From Sedimentisphaerales bacterium (GTDB lineage Bacteria; Planctomycetota; Phycisphaerae; Sedimentisphaerales; SM23-30), in the NCBI GenBank assembly GCA_963666285.1, contig OY762711.1: DNA of 64,000 bases. One strand, 5' to 3'. Below the pieces are notes generated by a model. That model was not told the DNA's origin. It saw nothing but the letters and a program-made list of their open reading frames with translations, and made no database searches. The position numbers and the translations under genes were made by a program. This document shows, piece after piece, positions 1-50,542 of this stretch; position 1 is the stretch's first letter, and each line of letters opens with the position of its first letter.

Positions 1-3000
1 GGGTAAATGTTGGTGCCTGGTTACCAAGACCTACCGCTATGCTGACTGTCAGGTTGTTAGAACCGCCCTTGCTGTCTGTTGCGGTAAACTTGGCACTATA
101 GCTGCCCTGGGTACCGGCATCTGGTATCCAGGCAAAGCTATTACTGCTGCTGTCAAATGCTGCTCCGCTTGGCATACTGTTACATACTACGCTTACGGTA
201 TCACCATCCGGGTCTTTTGTATAGACTGTAAATTTAAGTTTATTGGCTGCTGTTACGCTATATGCTGACGATGAAGTAAATTCCGGGTTGCGGTTTACGT
301 CCTCTACACCTAATGTTACTGTTTTGCTTGCTGAGCCGCCATTGGAATCTGTTACGGTAAAGAGTACCGTCTTGGAGCCGGAATCGCTATAACCTGGCTT
401 CCAGCTGAACAAACCGCTGGTTGAATTCAGACTTGCTCCGGTTGGCAGGTTACTGCTGGAATATGATAAAGTATCTCCATCTTCGTCTGTTGCTGCCAGG
501 GCAAAGCTGTTCTCGGTATTTTCTTTAAAACCTGGCACGGATAATGCACCAAATACCGGGTTGCGGTTTAGATTATTTACATAAATCACTACTTCAAGGC
601 TATCGCTGCCATGGAATCCATCATCGACCTTAAACTCGGCAGTATAAGGACTTGATCCGGATGCATCATAGTCAGGCGTCCAGGAAAATGTCTTGGTGCT
701 TGCATTAAATACTGCTCCAGATGGCTTGCTGGTACATGAATATGTTAATGCATCACCATCAGCATCTGTGGCTGAAATACTAAAGCTTAACGGGCTCATT
801 TCCGTTACTGTTTTAGCTGTAACTCCGGCAAATACCGGTAAATTGTTACCCGCTTCAGAAACAGAAATCACTATTGTTTTTTCTGCCGTTTTTACCGATG
901 TGCTATCATCAGTAGCCGTTACCACTACTGTATAATTATTTGCCTGATCTTTGTTAGGTGTCCAGCTGAAACTGGCAGTACCATTTCCATTATCTACAAA
1001 TGTCGCACCGCTTGGTACTCCCGTAAAACTGAAACTGATATTATCATTATCTGCATCACTGGCAGTAACACTGAAAGATAGCGTTTCCTGGGCAATTACA
1101 GATTTACTCGATGAGGCACTTATTATAGGACTGTCGGCAACAGCCTTAACTGTCACATTCACTGTACCAACTGCGGTTCCGCCATGTCCGTCATTTACTG
1201 TATAGGTAAAGGAATCTGTTCCATTATAGTTTGACGATGGTGTATATGTTACCGTTCCATTACCATTATTAGTAACTGAACCATTGGTACCTTGTGTTAT
1301 ACTGCTTATACTTAAACTGTCTCCTTCAACATCAGTATCATTCCCTGTCAGACTGCCTGTAACAGCAACATCCTCACTTGTAATTAAAGTGTCATTAACT
1401 GCTGTTGGAATGTCATTTATAGGTAATATTAATACACTTACCGATGCTGTATCGCTGCCACCGTTACCATCATTAACCGTATAGGTAAAACTGTCCGTGC
1501 CAATTACGTTTGCCGACGGGGTATAAGTAATTGTTCCATCGCCGTTATTCACTACAGAACCCTTACTGCCCTGGCTGACCGAGCTGATACTCAACGTATC
1601 ACCATCTAAATCACTGTCATTGCTAAGAAGATTGCTGCTTATCAAGACGGTATCTTCATTTGCAACCAGGCTGTCGTTGGCGGCGGCTGGTATATCATTA
1701 ACTGCTGAAATCGTTATGTTTACTGTCGCTGTTGATGTTCCTCCGTTACCGTCGCTGGCAACATAAGTAAAGGTGTCTGAGCCGCTGTAGTTAGCCGATG
1801 GAGTATAAGTTACTACACCGTTACCATTGTTAACTACTGTACCGTGCGTACCCTGGGTTACAGAGGTAATTGTCAAACTGTCGTTATCTTCATCTATATC
1901 ATTGGCTAATAAATTACTTATAACTTTTACTACATCTTCATTTGTAATAACATTATCATTAACTGCCGTTGGAAAAGCATTAACATTTCCGACTGTTACA
2001 TTTGCTGTAATTGTATCTGTGCCGTTATTTGAATCTGTAACGACAAGTTGCAATCCTATCATACCGGCATCATCATAGCCTGGCTTCCAGCTGAATACTC
2101 CGCTGACCGGGTTTAGACTTGCGCCATCCGGTAGATTACTGCATGAATATGTCAATGTGTCACCATCTGCATCTGTTGCTGATACGGTAAAGCTGGTCAA
2201 TGCATTTTCTTTAAATCCCGGTACATTGATAGTTCCAAATTGAGGGTCACGGTTGAGGTTATTAACATTAATTGTTACTTCAATCGAATCAGTACCGTTA
2301 AAACCGTCATTGACTGAAATTACTGCGGTATACGGACTTGCACCCGCTGCACTATAGTCAGGAGTCCAACTGAAAACTTTAGTTGATGTATTAAAGCTTG
2401 CGCCTGCCGGCTTGCTGTCACAACTATATGTCAGGGTATCTCCATCCGCATCTGTTGCTGAAACTGTAAAAATCAGCTGACTCATCTCGGTTACTGTTTT
2501 TGTTCCAATTTCCGCCAAAACCGGTAAATTATTGTCTGCCTGACCAACCGATATCTTTATTGATTTTGTCGCGGTCAGTGCTTGAGCACTATCATCTTTC
2601 GCAGTTACCTGGATAGTATAGTCACCTGCCTGGCCCTTCCCGGAGGTCCAGTCAAATGTAGCTGTTCCATCACCGTTATCCGCAAACTTTGCTCCCGCTG
2701 GCAAAGTAGAAAATGTAAATGAAACACCGTCATTATCCTTATCTGTTGCTGACACACTAAAAGTTAGTCGTTGTGTTGCCACCAGGGCCTGGTTTGCTGC
2801 CGCTGTAATTACCGGTGCATCTGGCTGTGCTGCTATTGTCACATTCACCGTTCCATTGGCAGTTCCGCCGTTTCCATCACTTACGGTATAGGTAAAACTG
2901 TCCAAACCATAATAATCGGCTTCCGGCGTATAGCTCACTGTACCATCGCCATTATTTACTACTGAACCATGCGATCCCTGGGTTACGGCAGAAATACTCA

Positions 3001-6000
3001 AACTATCATTGTCAGAATCTGTATCGTTTGCCAGCAGATTACCACTGGTTACTGCAGAATCCTCATTTGTACTGACTGTATCATTAACTGCAACTGGTAC
3101 ATCATTAGAAGATGATACTGTTACGCTGACTGTTCCAATATCACTGCTGCCGTTTCCATCACTTACGGTATAGGTAAATGTATCTGGACCACTGTAATTT
3201 GCAGACGGTGTATACGTTACTGTTCCATTGCCATTGTTGGTTACTGTTCCATGCGAACCCTGCGTCACAGCTGTTATAGACAAACTGTCATTATCCGCAT
3301 CTGAATCGTTCGATAACAGGTTACCGCTGGTCTTTGCTGTATCTTCATCAACCACAAGAGTGTCATTAGATGCGCTAGGACCATCATTAACTGCCGCAAT
3401 CGTTACAGATACCTGGGCTGAATCAGTCCCACCGTTTCCATCACTTACGGTATAACTAAAACTATCTGAGCCGCTGTAATTTGCTGCCGGGGTGTAAGTT
3501 ACTGTTCCATTCCCATTGTTGGTTACTGTTCCGTGAGCTCCTTGCGTAACTGACTGAACTGTCAGAGTATCGTTATCTGCATCTGTATCATTGGCCACCA
3601 GGCTGCCGCTGGTTTTGGCTGTATCTTCATTAGCCTGAAGAACATCGTTAACCGCTATTGGAACATCATTTACTGCTGAAACAAAGACATTGACTGTTGC
3701 AGTAGCTGTCCCGCCATTACCATCATTAATTAAATAAGTAAATGAATCAGAGCCGGTAAAATTTGCTGCCGGCTGATAAGTAACGGTTCCGTTTCCATTA
3801 TTTGTTACTGTACCATTACTGCCTTGCCCCACCAGGCTGATACTAAGTGTATCACCATCAATATCTGTATCATTGCTCAGCAGGTTGCCGCTGACCTTGG
3901 CATTATCTTCAGTTACTATTATGGTATCATTTGCCGCTGCTGGCAAATCATTCACATTTGTTACCGTCACATTCATGGTAGAAGTGGTGGTACCACCGTT
4001 CCCATCGCTGATAATAAACGAAAATGAGTCCGCGCCGTAGTAGTTCGCTGACGGGGCGTAAGTCGCCGTACCGTCTCCGTTGTTGGTTACTAAACCGTGG
4101 CTGGCCGCCGATACCCCGCTTACTGTAAGCGTATCGCCTTCTATATCCGACGCATTGGCCGTGAGGTCGCCGCTAACCTTGGCACTGTCTTCGCTTACCG
4201 TCATTGATAGCGCCGCGCCTGCCAACGGTGCATCGTTTACTGCTGCAATTGTCACTGCTACCGTTGCTGTAGCTGTCCCGCCCCTACCGTCACTAATATC
4301 ATAAGTGAAGCTGTCAGAACCATTTACATTCGCAGTCGGCGTATAAGTCACCGTCCCGTTCCCGTTATTGACCACTGAACCTTTACTACCCTGCGACACA
4401 CCCGTTATCACCAGTCCGTCACCGTCCGCATCACTGTCGTTAGCCGTCAATACACCGCTAACCGCCGCCGTATCCTCTACTACAGCCAACGTATCACCCA
4501 CCCCCACCGGATTCTGGTTGTTTGCTGCTGCGGTTGTAAATGTATATGCTACATCCTCATACGTTTCGGAATTACCAAATTCATCTATACAGGTAATGCT
4601 ATAACTATATTCTGTACCAGGTGTTAAGTCGGTTAATGTAATAGAGTGGCTTGTTGATGGGTTAACATCACTTGTCACAGTCTTGGTAACTAAACTTCCA
4701 CCTGACTTACTTGTAGCTTTCGGCCAGTAATCTATCACCGAACTCGCCGCTTCATTCGTATTCCACTGTATTGGCTGACTGGTATCACCAGCTGCATTTA
4801 CTTGTAAATCAACCACTTGCGGTGGCGGCGAGTTGTATATTATCCCAATTTCATCTGTAGTCAAAACTTTATTGAATATCTGTAAATTGTCCATATCCCC
4901 ATTATAAAAGTGCCTTGATTCTGTGTAAGCACCAATAATTATAGACTTACTTGTCATGATTTTACCTGAAAATAAAAAATCACTACTCGGAACTATATTT
5001 CCATTAACATACAATCTAGCTTCAACACCATTGTAAACAAAACATACATACGACCATTCATTTAATGGAAGATTTTCAATGCTTATCTTTTCAAAATGTT
5101 CATTATTCTCGTTCATTAGATAGTATGATAGTTTACCATTATCAAAATAAATTCTTAAACTTCCAGCATTTAGTATGTAATTATCTTCAGTACTATCTAT
5201 ATAAAATGGATTAAGCCAAACTGATACAGTACATGAACTAATATTATTCAAATAGTCACATTCTGGGCTCTTAATGCAGTTTTTTCCATCAAATCTAGCA
5301 CTTTGTTGAAAAATACTATCAACATAATTTTCTTCTTCAAACCAACTATATGTGTCATAATAACTGGAATAATTTAAAAGATTCTTATTGAAATTAAGGT
5401 TTAATAACGTTCCTGGAAGAATACTATTATCAATGATAACATTCTTTTTTTCTATTGATTCAAAGCCTTCATCATCTGTTACAGTTAATGTAACTTCATG
5501 CAACCCATCAGAAGCATATGCATGAGTAACAATTTTACCCGTTGCTAAATTTGAATCTCCAAAATTCCAGTTGTAGTTAGTAATATATCCATTGCTATCA
5601 GAAGTCTCAGAGGCATCAAAGACAATATTCTCATTTGCCCTAGTAACATCTGATGAGATATTAAATTTAGCATTTGGCTTCCCTTGCCAGTTGGGATTAT
5701 AATAGCAAATACCAAATACCCCCGATTGCCATAACTGTTTAGATATACTATTATTATCATCTTCAGAAAAACTCACCATATAACTATTAGCAGCCTCATA
5801 AAAATTAGGAAACCGATGATTAACTAAACATAACTGAGGAAAATAACGAGGCAGTAGATCATCTTCACTCGAATATTTTACACCATATAAAACACCTTGA
5901 TTTGCATTCATAAATGCCAAATCCATTGACGGATAATCATATGGAAGACCTGCAATGATAGAAGTGTTAGAATAAATATAAAAACAGTGCCCCATAAGTC

Positions 6001-45320: not shown

Positions 45321-47587
45321 TTAATTTTTATCATACACCCTGACATAATCAATATAATATTTATGAGGAAACAGGCTGTCATCAATACCTTTTTGACCGC
45401 CCCATGCTCCGCCAATCGCAAGGTTTAGTATTAAATAATGCGGCTTATCAAACGGCCATTCATTATCTCCGGTACCTTCATTACGAAAAGTAAAATAATG
45501 CTTATTATCAACGAATGTCTCAATCCTGTCATCATACCACTCAATTGCATATAAATGATACTTATCCATACAGGTTGGAACCTTTATAGTAGCACTCTTC
45601 TGTGTGCCGATTACATGATAATAGCTCTTACAGTGAATTGTGCCAACGATAGTCTCCGGATCATAACCAACATTTTCCATTATATCGATCTCGCCGCATT
45701 TCGGCCACCCAACCTGACCAATATTTTTCCCCAACATCCATATCGCCGGCCAGGTCCCTTTCCCTGTTGGCAGCTTTGCCCTTATCTCAAATCTACCATA
45801 AGTCCATTCTTTCTTCCCTGCAGTATGGATACTCGCTGATGTATATTCAGCATTCTCTTTGTACCCCTCTTTTCGTGCCTCAATCAGCAAACTGCCATTC
45901 TCAACACGTGTATTCTCCAGTCTCTGCCTGGTATAATATTGCTTTTCATTATTTCGGATAAAACCAACCTCATGGTTCCACTTCTCAGCATCAGGCAAGC
46001 CCTGATAGTCAAACTCATCATTCCAGCTCAACTTCCACTCAGGATCCTCCGGTTTATTGTAGCCCTTTTCATCACAATGCAATTTTGAATGCAATCTTAC
46101 TTTATTTACCGTATCCCCGCCATTTTGTAAGTAAAACCGGTTTTCCTTGACTCCGGAATCAATTCTATCTGATTTCGTATTATCTGCGGTAAAAACGGCA
46201 CTTGTTAACGGATGCCATATACCATCGATACTCTTCACCCAGCCATTACCAAAACTTGCATTGCGGATTTGCTTGGCACTTTCGCCATTACGCCTGAAAT
46301 CTTCGACAAACGAATAATACCCTTTTAATGGATCGCCAGCGGTTTTTGTCTGGAATGTAGCAAGATGCTTCCAGCCGCTCGTCTCGCTCAAACAAACAAA
46401 AGCTGAGTAAATTGTTGTGTCATTCTCTACCACAGCTTTGACTATACACCTTACAGTCTGGTTCAGCTCCCAATCAGTATAAAACATAGACTTCGCGCCC
46501 GTGCCTTCATTTCCAAACCTGCTTATTTTTACATCATCTCCGGAAAATATAACTTTAACCCGGTTTTCTTCTTGCACCTTAGCTGGATCATTCTGATCAC
46601 CCGGATCCCACACAGAGAAGATTACTACTTTTTTCCCTCCCCATAACTCCTGGATTCCAAAATAGCCGTGATTAAATCCACAAACGCAAAAGTAACTGCC
46701 TGGAACACTTTTTTCAACTGAAACTTCATTATAAAATGCCATACCTTCCGGAGCGTCATACCACAAATGAACACTGCGGGCTGCTCTAGGAAACTCATTT
46801 CCCTGGGCCAAGACATTTGTTACTATTAAAAAACATATAAACAGGAGAATAAACGTATACTTTTGTCGAGTAGGCATGTCGCCTCCTTTCATTAATTTAA
46901 CAAATTCTGAGTTTCATTATATTTTGTGCAAGGAAACGCATGCCCCTCACAGAACCGGACTTGAAGATTTCCCTCATCCGGCTCTTCATTAATGCTCACT
47001 TTGACGGCTACATAAGGCAAAGTAATGTGCCTTGTAGAAGTCTCCGATAGAAGACGCTGTGGAACGTTCATGGTTTCTTCCAGTTCAGTGCCTGGCCAAT
47101 ATCCTGTTTCGCCTTTACACATTAATGCTGACCCCTTCGAGTGCCTCAAACTTCGAAACTCAACAGGCATTACCCTGTTTACTCCTCTACTATGAGTCAG
47201 TCCGACTACCAAAATGCCATACGGCCGCGTCACGGTTTCAGCTCCTTGGCCGCTTCCTTTCGGAGCACTTCGGTTCTCCCAAGTTCCAATGCAGTCAGTT
47301 CGTTTGCCCGCTACGGACTCAGACCCCGGCTCGTCGATATATGCTCGCCGTATTTCGCATATATCGATATTGGCTTCAGGCATATGAAAACCCTGGCCCG
47401 GATGCGATAAGGAATAATTTCGGGGCTCAACACCTTCACTTGCGTTGTGGCTGACAAACTCCTTTCCCGGGGCTTCGTACAGTTCGTTACCTCTCTGCAC
47501 GCCCGGTGCTGTAATGGGCGGGTGGCTAGCCCTTACCCATGCCGGATTGGCCGGCTTGACTACATTAGCTTCGCTTGGCGCTCTCAT
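45321..47587 (-). CDS. Secreted DUF3472-like plus GH16 glycoside hydrolase, interrupted by a group II intron (exon 1 47587-47584, exon 2 46864-45321; spliced product 515 aa)
   Basis: Splicing gives ATG AAA AAG TAT = MKKYTFILLFICFLIVTNVLAQ (signal peptide); GYFGIQE..IFSVWD; GH16 motifs WPAIWML, GEIDIME, IDYVRVY. Confidence 0.88.
46865..47583 (-). mobile_element. RT-less group II intron, copy 1 (719 nt)
   Basis: 5' GAGCG (variant of GUGYG); domain V GAGCCGGATGAGGGAAATCTTCAAGTCCGGTTC at 46984-46952; domain VI with bulged A at -7 (46871); 3' end ..CTCGAC; no RT/YADD motif; identical by eye to copy 2. Confidence 0.93.
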
Positions 47588-47646
47588 ACTCTTTCCTTAC
47601 CCGGCATAACCAGATGAATTAAAAAATTAAACTTATGGCCAAAATA

Positions 47647-48795
47647 TCATTGTTTTAGCCATTCAAATGAAAATCTGTCAAAAACTATCATCTCATATGG
47701 ATGATCATTTCCTTTCTCAAATAAACAGCCCGCTGTCCCATCAGCCGTCACTGCAAGACACGAATACGCACTGGCTCCGCTATATAGCAATTTTGCGACC
47801 GGCCAGGTCTTACCATCGTCATAACTCAGCCTAACAGTCATGTTAACACGAGAACTCATACTCGCTGGATTAGAAAACAGAAGATAAGGTCGTGATTGTG
47901 AGTTATCATCATCACTCATCCACTTCACAATACTCGCCTGGCAGATTGGCTCAACCAATTCAGAATCATAAAAAGTCTCCGACCAGGTTACTCCGCCATC
48001 GTCACTGCAGCTCACCGCACGGGTCCTATTCTCCCTGAAGTAATTTCTGCTATTCAGCATAATCCTTCCGTCCGACAATTCGACAACCTGACACTCATTT
48101 AACTTATCTGCCCGGGTTGAACCTCCCAGCTTCCAGCTGTTACCATGGTCATCGGAATAACTAACATGAGAATAATACTTCTTGCTACCCTTCTCTATAT
48201 GATCGCAAGGTATCACCAATCTCCCATTAAACCGCCCGCTGCATAGCTGAATCCCGCAACCAGGCCCGGTTGCATACCAGCTCCAGTTTTCCTGCTTTGT
48301 CGAACTGGTTATATCAATAGGCTTTGTCCAGGAAATACCATCATCTGAACTGTGAGACACCCAGACTGTTCTGGTCTCTTTACTGCTGCCATCTATTATC
48401 TGCCTTTCGTGGTCCGAGCCAAGGTTGCGAGTCATAAGCAACCAGATAATACCGGTATCTTCGTCTACCACCACACAAGGATTACCGCAGGTATTTTCAC
48501 CGTCTGACCAGACTATTATCTGATCTGACCATGTTTTACCATTATCTGTACTTCGCTTCAGTAAAATATCGATATTGCCGGCATCCCCTTTGTTTTCCCT
48601 GCCTTCACAAAATGCCAGGATAGTCCCTTTTGTAGTCACTCCCAAAGCCGGAATACGATAGGTATGATAGCCGCCACTGCCACTTTCGTAAACAGTGCAT
48701 ATTTCTCTCTCAAAATTACTTTCAGCCAAAACATGAAAATGACAAACCAAAAGTAATATTATAATTTTCAGTCCAAAATACATGTAATTATTCAT
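47647..48795 (-). CDS. Sialidase family protein (GH33)
   Basis: Signal peptide, YRIP motif, several Asp-boxes (STDNGKTW, SSDDGISW, SDDHGNSW, SDDGGVTW, SYDDGKTW). Confidence 0.92.
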   Translation of the reverse strand: MNNYMYFGLKIIILLLVCHFHVLAESNFEREICTVYESGSGGYHTYRIPALGVTTKGTILAFCEGRENKGDAGNIDILLKRSTDNGKTWSDQIIVWSDGENTCGNPCVVVDEDTGIIWLLMTRNLGSDHERQIIDGSSKETRTVWVSHSSDDGISWTKPIDITSSTKQENWSWYATGPGCGIQLCSGRFNGRLVIPCDHIEKGSKKYYSHVSYSDDHGNSWKLGGSTRADKLNECQVVELSDGRIMLNSRNYFRENRTRAVSCSDDGGVTWSETFYDSELVEPICQASIVKWMSDDDNSQSRPYLLFSNPASMSSRVNMTVRLSYDDGKTWPVAKLLYSGASAYSCLAVTADGTAGCLFEKGNDHPYEMIVFDRFSFEWLKQ

Positions 48796-48821: not shown

Positions 48822-50542
48822 TTACTGTCTCGTATTGTTCACCTTGACTGCTTCAATTGTCATATCTTTCCATTCGGATTCAATACCGCGTAAATGATGA
48901 TCGAAAAACTGCTTTGTATATTTAATTGTCTCCGGTCCAAATCCTTGACCGTGCCCTCCGTCTTTTACGGTAATCATTGTACAGTTTATTTTTGCTTTTC
49001 TCAAAGCAGTAATAAATAATTCAGATTGATTATACGGCACCAGCGGATCTTTGGTACCATGAATTATTAAAAATGGAGGATCATCTTTAGTAATATACCG
49101 AATTGGATTCGCAGTAGCAACCTTATCCTTATTCTCTTGTATGGCTCCTCCGATAAGTTCTGATTCCGGCGAATCTGGTGCATCGTGGCTCTGGATCGAA
49201 CCTGCTTTATCCATCTGCAAAAAATCGGTCGGGCCAAAGAAATCTGCAACACATGAAACATGACTCGAAACGTCTTTATATTCTCCTAGTCCCCCATCCA
49301 TAACCGCCGCTCCACTGCTCGTACCCAGCATTGATACCAGGTGGCCGCCGGCTGATGATCCCCATACCCCTATCCTATCGCTATCTAATCCGTATTTATT
49401 TGCATTTGCCCTTATCCAGCGAATGGCAGCTTTACAGTCATGAATTTGTGCCGGCCAAACGGCATCTCCACTTAACCTGTAATTTACTGTCGCCGCGGCA
49501 TAATCTCCTGAAGCAACAAACGGTATCAGCTTTCCGACACTACTGGATTTATCTCCCGCTCTAAATGCTCCGCCATGAACATACACAATTACAGGCAAAG
49601 ACTTTTCTCCTGAATTCTTTGGAATCAGCAAATCTAAACACTGTCTTTCATGACTGTTTTTTAGATAAGGTAAGTCTTTTATGTGTAGAACATTATCGCG
49701 GTTCATCTTATACTGCATACCTCTTTCCGGCCTTTCCCTGTTTTGTTCCTGCTGGCCGAATAGCTGAGCTGCTCCCAAAAATATAACCAGAATCACGATT
49801 ATCTGTCTATTAATATCTTGTCGAGTAGGCATGTCGCCTCCTTTCATTAATTTAACAAATTCTGAGTTTCATTATATTTTGTGCAAGGAAACGCATGCCC
49901 CTCACAGAACCGGACTTGAAGATTTCCCTCATCCGGCTCTTCATTAATGCTCACTTTGACGGCTACATAAGGCAAAGTAATGTGCCTTGTAGAAGTCTCC
50001 GATAGAAGACGCTGTGGAACGTTCATGGTTTCTTCCAGTTCAGTGCCTGGCCAATATCCTGTTTCGCCTTTACACATTAATGCTGACCCCTTCGAGTGCC
50101 TCAAACTTCGAAACTCAACAGGCATTACCCTGTTTACTCCTCTACTATGAGTCAGTCCGACTACCAAAATGCCATACGGCCGCGTCACGGTTTCAGCTCC
50201 TTGGCCGCTTCCTTTCGGAGCACTTCGGTTCTCCCAAGTTCCAATGCAGTCAGTTCGTTTGCCCGCTACGGACTCAGACCCCGGCTCGTCGATATATGCT
50301 CGCCGTATTTCGCATATATCGATATTGGCTTCAGGCATATGAAAACCCTGGCCCGGATGCGATAAGGAATAATTTCGGGGCTCAACACCTTCACTTGCGT
50401 TGTGGCTGACAAACTCCTTTCCCGGGGCTTCGTACAGTTCGTTACCTCTCTGCACGCCCGGTGCTGTAATGGGCGGGTGGCTAGCCCTTACCCATGCCGG
50501 ATTGGCCGGCTTGACTACATTAGCTTCGCTTGGCGCTCTCAT
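48822..50542 (-). CDS. Secreted alpha/beta-hydrolase (BD-FAE-like esterase), interrupted by a group II intron (exon 1 50542-50539, exon 2 49819-48822; spliced product 333 aa)
   Basis: Splicing gives ATG AAA GAT ATT = MKDINRQIIVILVIFLGAAQLFG; HGGAF, GSSAGGHL, HGTKDPLVP, GGHG. Confidence 0.88.
49820..50538 (-). mobile_element. RT-less group II intron, copy 2 (719 nt)
   Basis: Same sequence as 46865-47583 (offset 2955); flanks diverge outside TATGA|AA. Confidence 0.93.

Follow-up and report, generated by a model that had tools for sequence, protein, structure and literature searches.

The window analysed here, a stretch of 64,000 nt from a Sedimentisphaerales bacterium (assembly GCA_963666285.1, contig OY762711.1), contains two identical copies of a 719 nt group II intron lacking an open reading frame (ORF) of its own, each inserted behind the start codon plus one base of a host gene. 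The branch-point domain of this intron, domain VI, holds a Shine-Dalgarno (SD) sequence and an AUG in frame with the downstream exon, both predicted to be paired within the helix, and the reading frame entering from the host start codon is open through the ribozyme until shortly before this AUG. On the basis of the sequences, we think it rather likely that this start-targeting intron has built a translational bypass into its own ribozyme, by which translation of the host gene would be coupled from one side of the intron to the other.

A probable hidden initiation region in domain VI

The elements of the two copies and their exons are as follows (positions in the window; all on the minus strand).

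46865..47583 (-): ORF-less group II intron, copy 1, 719 nt, after AUG+A of the DUF3472/GH16 gene
49820..50538 (-): intron copy 2, identical to copy 1, after AUG+A of the BD-FAE esterase gene
45321..46864 (-): exon 2 of host gene 1 (DUF3472 + GH16), from Pfam domains and the ORF
48822..49819 (-): exon 2 of host gene 2 (BD-FAE alpha/beta hydrolase)
47593..47599 (-): host SD UAAGGAA, also the probable intron-binding site 2 (IBS2), by predicted pairing
47584..47588 (-): intron-binding site 1 (IBS1, UAUGA), including the host start codon 47587-47585 and followed by the 5′ splice site
47408..47414 (-): exon-binding site 2 (EBS2, UUCCUUA), an anti-SD-like guide, from pairing permutations
47383..47388 (-): exon-binding site 1 (EBS1, UUCAUA), an anti-start-codon guide, from pairing permutations
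46951..46987 (-): domain V with AGC triad and 5-nt loop, from Rfam and fold
46865..46948 (-): domain VI, 84 nt, from Rfam and fold
46930..46942 (-): 5′ strand of domain VI, in which CAU (46942-46940) pairs with the restart AUG and UUUCCUU (46936-46930) with the SD
46889..46894 (-): UAAUGA, the double stop of the read-through frame, overlapping a non-conserved AUG at 46892
46882..46889 (-): sequestered SD, AAAGGAGG
46875..46877 (-): conserved in-frame restart AUG, 13 nt before the 3′ splice site
46871 (-): predicted bulged branch-point A
49830..49844 (-): SD and restart AUG (49832) of copy 2

The intron matched Rfam RF02005 with 115.9 bits over the domain I–IV ribozyme scaffold and RF00029 with 55.5 bits over the domain V catalytic triad and the bulged A of domain VI, in agreement with the predicted fold, and its ends fit the GUGYG/AY rule, with AC at the 3′ end and a variant GAGCG at the 5′ end, where most relatives have GUGYG. 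As predicted from the sequence, host gene 1 would give a product of 515 aa after splicing (MKKYTF...) or 518 aa after a restart at the domain VI AUG (MPTRQKYTF...), and host gene 2 a product of 333 aa (MKDINR...) or 336 aa (MPTRQDINR...).

A preliminary description of this DNA had drawn attention to an unusually long domain VI with a 3′ strand containing an SD and two in-frame AUGs, and our analysis confirmed both the length (84 nt, against ~39–42 nt in six outgroup domain VI segments) and the 3′ strand, which reads UAAUG-AAAGGAGG-CGAC-AUG-CCU-ACU-CGA-C before the exon. In each window copy, exon 2 continues the frame of AUG 46892 and of AUG 46877 (MPTRQKYTF and MPTRQDINR, reading from the second of these AUGs), and the domain VI AUGs are in frame in all 8 genomic copies by construction; since the window contains two copies with identical sequence and insertion phase, we rejected their agreement in frame as independent evidence. 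The upstream AUG 46892 (MKGGD) could not be upheld as a conserved start, since it is missing in 8/8 ORF-less relatives from other sources, and what is conserved at this position is the overlapping stop codon, which closes the long intron frame.

The SD (46889-46882) and AUG 46877 are paired in the predicted fold inside the helix that bulges the branch A (46871), as had been proposed. The minimum free energy of domain VI is −48.7 kcal/mol (z −6.08, 0/200 shuffles), with pairing probabilities of 1.0 for AUG 46877 and 0.82 for the SD. Pairing of this SD with the genome's own 16S rRNA tail amounts to −11.9 kcal/mol, a value matched by 0.18% of 4000 random windows, and the eight host SDs are all weaker (−2.9 to −8.2 kcal/mol). 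Opening the ribosome binding site (RBS) in the folded domain VI was computed to cost 20.8 and 18.2 kcal/mol, so that folded domain VI and translation initiation are mutually exclusive, as previously suggested; with the footprint of a ribosome at UAA 46894 kept open, the cost was 3.9 and 5.1 kcal/mol.

From this exclusivity the preliminary description had further deduced a possible RNA switch, and this part of its interpretation was not supported. In a regulated switch, an environmental or maturase signal would toggle domain VI and choose between two N-termini. The level of reverse transcriptase (RT) could bias splicing versus read-through, since RT comes in trans from one intact genomic copy with a YADD motif, and the two states do exclude each other. 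We nevertheless consider a regulated switch very unlikely: no alternative helix freeing the RBS was found (the best reaching −18.3 versus −27.1 kcal/mol for the cognate helix), no Rfam riboswitch or aptamer scored at the gathering threshold in the window, families outside Rfam not being covered, the same element occurs in unrelated genes as recent copies (99.6–100% identical), and the two products differ by three residues only. An internal promoter through which the SD might be freed was rejected as well: none was found on the minus strand, and matches were at chance level.

To place the element in its lineage, metagenome contigs were scanned with a 19-nt anchor located upstream of domain IV, which is independent of domain VI and of the exons. 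The scan gave 113 loci, 80 of them with flanks; a 5′ splice site was called by pattern in 59/113 and a 3′ end in 41/113, and seven loci with domain V lacking a called 3′ end were dropped. Most complete relatives encode an RT. The relatives are kin (mean identity 80%), and all counts given here ignore kinship.

Conservation of the SD-AUG phase, which had been put forward as a check, was borne out, as an in-frame domain VI AUG is present in all 41 relatives with a called 3′ end. It lies at −13 in 40 of these and at −16 in L110, where the AUG has moved by exactly one codon (+3) and its pairing is rebuilt by compensatory changes. An SD of −5.3 kcal/mol or better was found in 38/38 distinct domain VI sequences, the window included (13% of random windows), and SD and AUG are both predicted to be paired in these 38; the SD varies in sequence but in each case retains its pairing with the 16S tail. 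In 14/22 relatives, the AUG frame remains open over 50 codons of exon 2, compared to 0 and 5 for the other frames. A distant class E-like intron from a Megaera plasmid, whose RT is 48% identical, occupies a phase 0 site, and its SD-AUG, at −33, is likewise in phase 0. Because the basal domain VI helix is invariant at 8/9 pairs in 36 sequences, conservation of the AUG is uninformative by itself, and the argument therefore rests on L110, the Megaera intron and the SD. The feature is real and lineage-wide, and the AUG in 41/41, the SD in 38/38, the shift in L110 and the phase in Megaera make it highly probable that the intron carries a replacement initiation region, as the preliminary description had held. 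A 5′-truncated lineage member on the Caedibacter plasmid pKAP298 (L175:1000-2940, RT 64% identical) also has a long domain VI, with AGGAG and an AUG at −13.

Open reading frames across the ribozyme

The frame entering the intron from the host start codon was missed in the preliminary description, and in the two window copies it is positioned as follows.

46892..47587 (-): open frame of 231 codons from the host AUG across domains I–VI of copy 1, ending at UAA (46894-46892), then UGA
49847..50542 (-): read-through frame of copy 2, 231 codons from the host AUG

This frame is open through the whole intron in 8/8 genomic copies, and its UAA-UGA stops lie 14 nt upstream of restart AUG 46877. There are no stops in 229 codons, the other frames having 14 and 20, and 0/20000 shuffles were open in this frame, although such P-values overstate the case because the aligned frame of a genomic RT-encoding relative is already stop-poor (3 stops vs 8 and 15), as is one frame in some outgroups (3–5 stops). 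Sixteen changes unique to the window copy remove both stops common to its two genomic relatives (P=0.005 by simulation), and changes unique to the window copy also remove an internal GUG start.

Most relatives have the open path divided into successive frames. The host frame stops after ~30 codons (exactly 30 in 47/55), with TGA in 29, TAA in 22 and TAG in 4, and a frame of at least 100 codons starts −12 to +21 nt from this leader stop in 50/55. This second frame spans domains I–III (120–150 codons). Its region was held by 83/113 loci, or 75 after merging at 97% identity, and was stop-free over 360 nt in 59/75, with the other frames open in 0/75 and 3/75 and 28/15000 shuffles reaching such openness; the three exceptions are 59–63% identical to the rest, have their AUG two bases later, and are open in the frame of that AUG. 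Stop triplets common to at least 3/68 sequences occur at 0 sites in the second frame and at 15 and 16 sites in the others; stop alleles do arise but remain in 1–2/68 sequences. Towards the RT gene, the second frame stops within 20 nt of the RT-frame ATG in 38/47 relatives (offsets of +14 in 24, −2 in 10, −1 in 2, and +16 and −4 once each).

The junctions show further variants: three copies in G494 have lost the codon-30 stop and have a 35-codon leader ending in UAAUG on the second AUG, and in the Megaera intron the host AUG opens a frame of 165 codons, which ends 3 nt short of the RT AUG. In ORF-less relatives the frame passes domain V into domain VI in 10/12, with 7 stopping at the position of the window copy. 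Insertions of 6, 24 and 30 nt preserve the frame, and paired +1/−1 indels (L094/L166 and L085/L096/L162) have rewritten 19–31 residues with the frame still open. The relay of frames is broken in 3/5 introns located off start codons versus 5/55 on them (P=0.014, in a small and related sample). Four loci (L072, L104, L118 and L138) have a 30-nt insertion at the same position in domain I with the frame kept, which is possibly a small repeat element.

A functional small protein encoded by the intron-spanning frame might be suspected from the 254 predicted proteins that match it at E ≤ 0.001. The matches inspected are translations of the ribozyme itself, and since protein matches are selected for openness, the evidence for open frames was taken from the DNA-anchored sample and not from them. 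The frame lacks third-position bias (0.126/0.129/0.148) and matches no Pfam family, nor is one common to 31 members, suggesting that it is the open path which is kept and not the peptide. As frameshift pairs have moreover replaced long stretches of it, we rejected a functional protein, which we regard as extremely improbable. Both the frame spanning the ribozyme and the restart ORF of domain VI appear as hypothetical proteins in the annotation of two Megaera plasmids (L178 and L211).

We judge it fairly probable that these frames form a ribosome relay. Several observations weigh against such a relay and against coupling to domain VI, among them the kinship of the sample, the invariant basal helix and the stop-poor frames of relative and outgroups mentioned above. 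The relay is broken in L182, which is located at a real gene start and has an intact domain VI SD-AUG, and also in L036 and L181; the leader junction is broken in 5/55 and the RT junction in 9/47. Distinct stop-creating alleles are not depleted (13 observed vs 15.7 expected), the Megaera introns interrupt very short host ORFs, and among the 8 genomic copies one splits an ORF of only 5 codons. Ribosome entry into group I ribozyme cores impairs splicing, according to the part of Edgell et al. 2011 (PMC3073962) used here. Finally, no conserved frame was found in the 95–159 nt between the RT stop and the domain VI AUG of RT-bearing introns, and because of this last leg, good support for direct coupling to domain VI is confined to the ORF-less forms. 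A separate count of 31/33 was disregarded, since it depends on start codons lying within the invariant domain V and lacks a control.

Two other explanations draw on these points. The open frames could feed the RT start or avoid Rho or RNase without opening domain VI, with its initiation region being a stand-alone, spare RBS that comes into use only through breathing, misfolding or cleavage of domain VI. This would fit the RT-bearing introns, where the relay clearly ends at the RT start (38/47) and the last leg is not conserved, as well as L182, which keeps the SD-AUG though its relay is broken, and ribosome association is described to shield Ll.LtrB RNA from RNase E in the part of PMC3851717 consulted. 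A spare RBS would, however, have to open unaided at 18–21 kcal/mol, and does not account for the ORF-less frame entering domain VI in 10/12 relatives, 7 of them with the stop of the window copy, so that we consider it unlikely. Alternatively, the SD-like purines, AUG and open frames may be a structural accident, frozen by-products in an intron that leaves its host gene wholly dependent on splicing, as could be argued from the invariant basal helix, the non-significant allele test, the stop-poor frame in relatives and the kinship of the sample. An accident is quite unlikely to have produced indel pairs of opposite sign that restore the frame, several different stop/start geometries at both relay junctions, an AUG phase that tracks the insertion phase in L110 and Megaera, and an SD with varying sequence and constant pairing with the 16S tail.

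Start-codon targeting, genomic copies and known introns

Among relatives with a called 5′ splice site, 55/59 follow ATG or GTG plus one base. None of 5000 permutations over 48 introns reached the cognate EBS1-IBS1 pairing, and EBS1 covaries with ATGG, ATGT, GTGA and AAGA sites. The host SD is −5.3 kcal/mol or better in 34/48 relatives with enough exon, EBS2 is mostly UCCUU-like, and its cognate pairing with the SD region beats the permuted pairing in 4987/5000 (48 introns). In the genome, AAGG is found upstream of 7/8 intron copies versus 160/790 likely TATGA gene starts. The preference of the lineage for start-codon sites is thus evident at sequence level, and EBS2 would contribute by pairing with the host SD.

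The genome contains 8 full intron copies, 99.6–100% identical, and one degenerate copy of 648 nt; all 8 full copies are preceded by TATGA and followed by A, and excision of the intron in silico restores ORFs of 515, 333, 153, 5, 86, 379, 512 and 271 codons. No intron-less allele was found in contigs from four sequencing runs, although contigs cannot report splicing. Four copies (C1 2351430, 4935977, 5274238 and 1407255) share two substitutions, one of them at the base of domain V, which points to two waves of spread. The degenerate copy (C1:1613560-1614207) is located in an intergenic repeat and has a 71-nt deletion and host-frame stops, with the domain VI SD-AUG intact.

Neither window copy encodes an RT. 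The genome also has two full RT-encoding relatives (C1:910721-912649 and 5397267-5395339; one with YADD, one with YADN) and two fragments, and RT for the ORF-less copies is available in trans from the one intact YADD copy. The two full relatives are ~86% identical to the ORF-less intron over the first 425 nt and differ from it in EBS1 and EBS2; they are located in AT-rich low-complexity repeats and not at gene starts, and have a weak domain VI SD (−4.2 kcal/mol) and a broken relay. Viral contigs gave 1 locus in one scan and 0 in another, and none was found in phages.

The host genes in the window belong to a co-directional gene run. Host proteins in this genome mostly look secreted, and the host genes of L031, L033 and L034 start with twin-arginine-like signal peptides, both of which may merely reflect MK starts. 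A terminator-like hairpin lies at 47635-47662 (-) between a sialidase-like gene and host gene 1, in a count that is at chance level. Positions 271-4399 of the window contain families of ~282-nt direct repeats (63–75% identical), probably from the gene of a repeat-domain surface protein running off the window start. Contigs C2–C4 are near-equal in size (65.6–66.6 kb each), alongside a 6.15-Mb contig.

The lineage probably belongs to class E (IIE), judging by sequence, because its nearest typed RT neighbours (three named, 44.6–48.0% identical) are class E in Table_3 of Miura et al. 2022 (PMC8919778, used in part), an assignment by similarity only, and because of the 5-nt domain V loop, a feature common to classes E and F. 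It resembles class E introns such as Cl.be.I2 (Nagy et al. 2013, PMC3753933, in the part consulted) in its typed RT neighbours, compact ribozyme, 5-nt domain V loop and EBS1/EBS2/EBS3-type recognition. It differs from four class E-like outgroups (L176, L177, L179 and L180), which are located off start codons and lack both the domain VI SD-AUG and the open domain I–III frame; GC-rich outgroups often have open frames through composition alone. The outgroup L177, from an Acaryochloris plasmid, has a long distal domain VI hairpin as found in many members, without an AUG.

Insertion at or next to translation signals, seen here in 55/59, is shared with a start/stop-codon clade of IIB1/CL1 introns that has a large domain I insertion (Michel et al. 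2007, as cited in PMC12584367). As far as the part of PMC12584367 used here describes that clade, it is set apart by a 5′-subterminal domain I insertion of 300–700 nt which the window intron lacks, by hosts unlike the hydrolases and secreted proteins seen here, and by no mention of a domain VI SD-AUG or a read-through frame. The whole window intron is 719 nt long, with the Rfam domain I match beginning 33 nt from its 5′ end, and the RTs of the lineage (443–448 aa) have typed neighbours in class E and not in CL1; membership of IIB1/CL1 thus fails on both the domain I insertion and the RT.

In Thermosynechococcus elongatus, ORF-less TeI3 copies multiply by means of a related RT provided in trans, and TeI3a-e are located in an RT ORF, between two start codons (Mohr et al. 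2010, PMC2882425, in the part consulted). The spread of ORF-less copies by RT in trans and the altered EBS sequences are as found here; TeI3 differs in being mostly nested in other mobile elements, and that part of the paper mentions neither a replacement RBS nor a read-through frame. The sections of Edgell et al. 2011 (PMC3073962) used here describe organellar group II intron-encoded proteins whose reading frame continues that of the upstream exon, as well as the I-TevI RBS of the T4 td intron sequestered by an intron helix, so that host-exon ribosomes crossing a ribozyme and an intron helix hiding an RBS both have counterparts; according to the same sections, intron-encoded proteins of bacteria are translated from an RBS of their own, and ribosomes are halted at the 5′ junction by most group I introns. 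In the present, bacterial case it is exon 2 of the host that the hidden RBS would serve, and the path is a relay of stops and restarts.

The geometry of the relay junctions resembles the stop-start coupling of bacterial operons and phage, where UAAUG or AUGA overlaps occur and the terminating ribosome melts an inhibitory hairpin: stop and start overlap, or are 14 nt apart with an SD between them. It differs in that the coupled frames here overprint a catalytic RNA, with peptides that appear unselected. Neither a domain VI SD-AUG nor translation across a bacterial group II ribozyme is described in the literature searched, with Michel 2007, Simon 2008 and the Zimmerly database being outside that search.

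Proposed mechanism and its implications

We propose that EBS1 pairs with the host start codon and EBS2 with the host SD, and therefore that the intron lands after AUG+1. An untranslated precursor would fold and splice with RT supplied in trans, and splicing would restore the native N-terminus (MKKYTF or MKDINR). A ribosome that has first loaded on the host AUG would meet no premature stop for 231 codons through domains I–VI, and would terminate at the UAA, where its footprint would cover the SD and the domain VI AUG follows after 14 nt. In doing so it may melt the branch-point helix, allowing re-initiation in the host frame and synthesis of MPTRQ plus exon 2; this restart would swap MK for MPTRQ ahead of apparent signal peptides (judged by eye). 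In RT-encoding relatives, ribosomes would pass from the ~30-codon leader via the second frame to the RT start, the RT and then the domain VI SD-AUG, which would tie RT synthesis to translation of the host gene. The peptides would be by-products, and what is kept would be the unbroken path, with ribosome cover keeping both the host gene and genes further down the operon expressed and safe from Rho polarity; the genome does encode Rho.

Splicing and translation would thus compete kinetically, without ligand control, and the domain VI toggle is most likely ribosome traffic and not a sensor. Whether the lineage has made its ribozyme translationally transparent, with splicing optional and the fate of the transcript, protein or lariat, set by ribosome traffic, is in our judgement evenly balanced; in that case, a drop in translation could allow the intron to mobilise.

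Splicing of bacterial group II introns is poor, and their survival is thought to depend either on splicing or on staying out of important genes. Self-splicing introns have been described as excluding ribosomes from their cores (PMC3073962, in the sections used). This lineage appears to do the opposite, as it targets gene starts, keeps a ribosome path through the folded ribozyme and has a restart in the branch helix. If true, it would offer a clean system to study competition between translation and group II splicing on one transcript. Such competition underlies ideas on why the nucleus separated the two processes. The lineage also suggests non-polar gene-targeting tools directed at start codons, and gene callers report the ribozyme frames as hypothetical proteins (254 matches) and assign host genes wrong N-termini. 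For the mobile intron itself, a ribosome path through the ribozyme would, if true, represent a third route to harmlessness.

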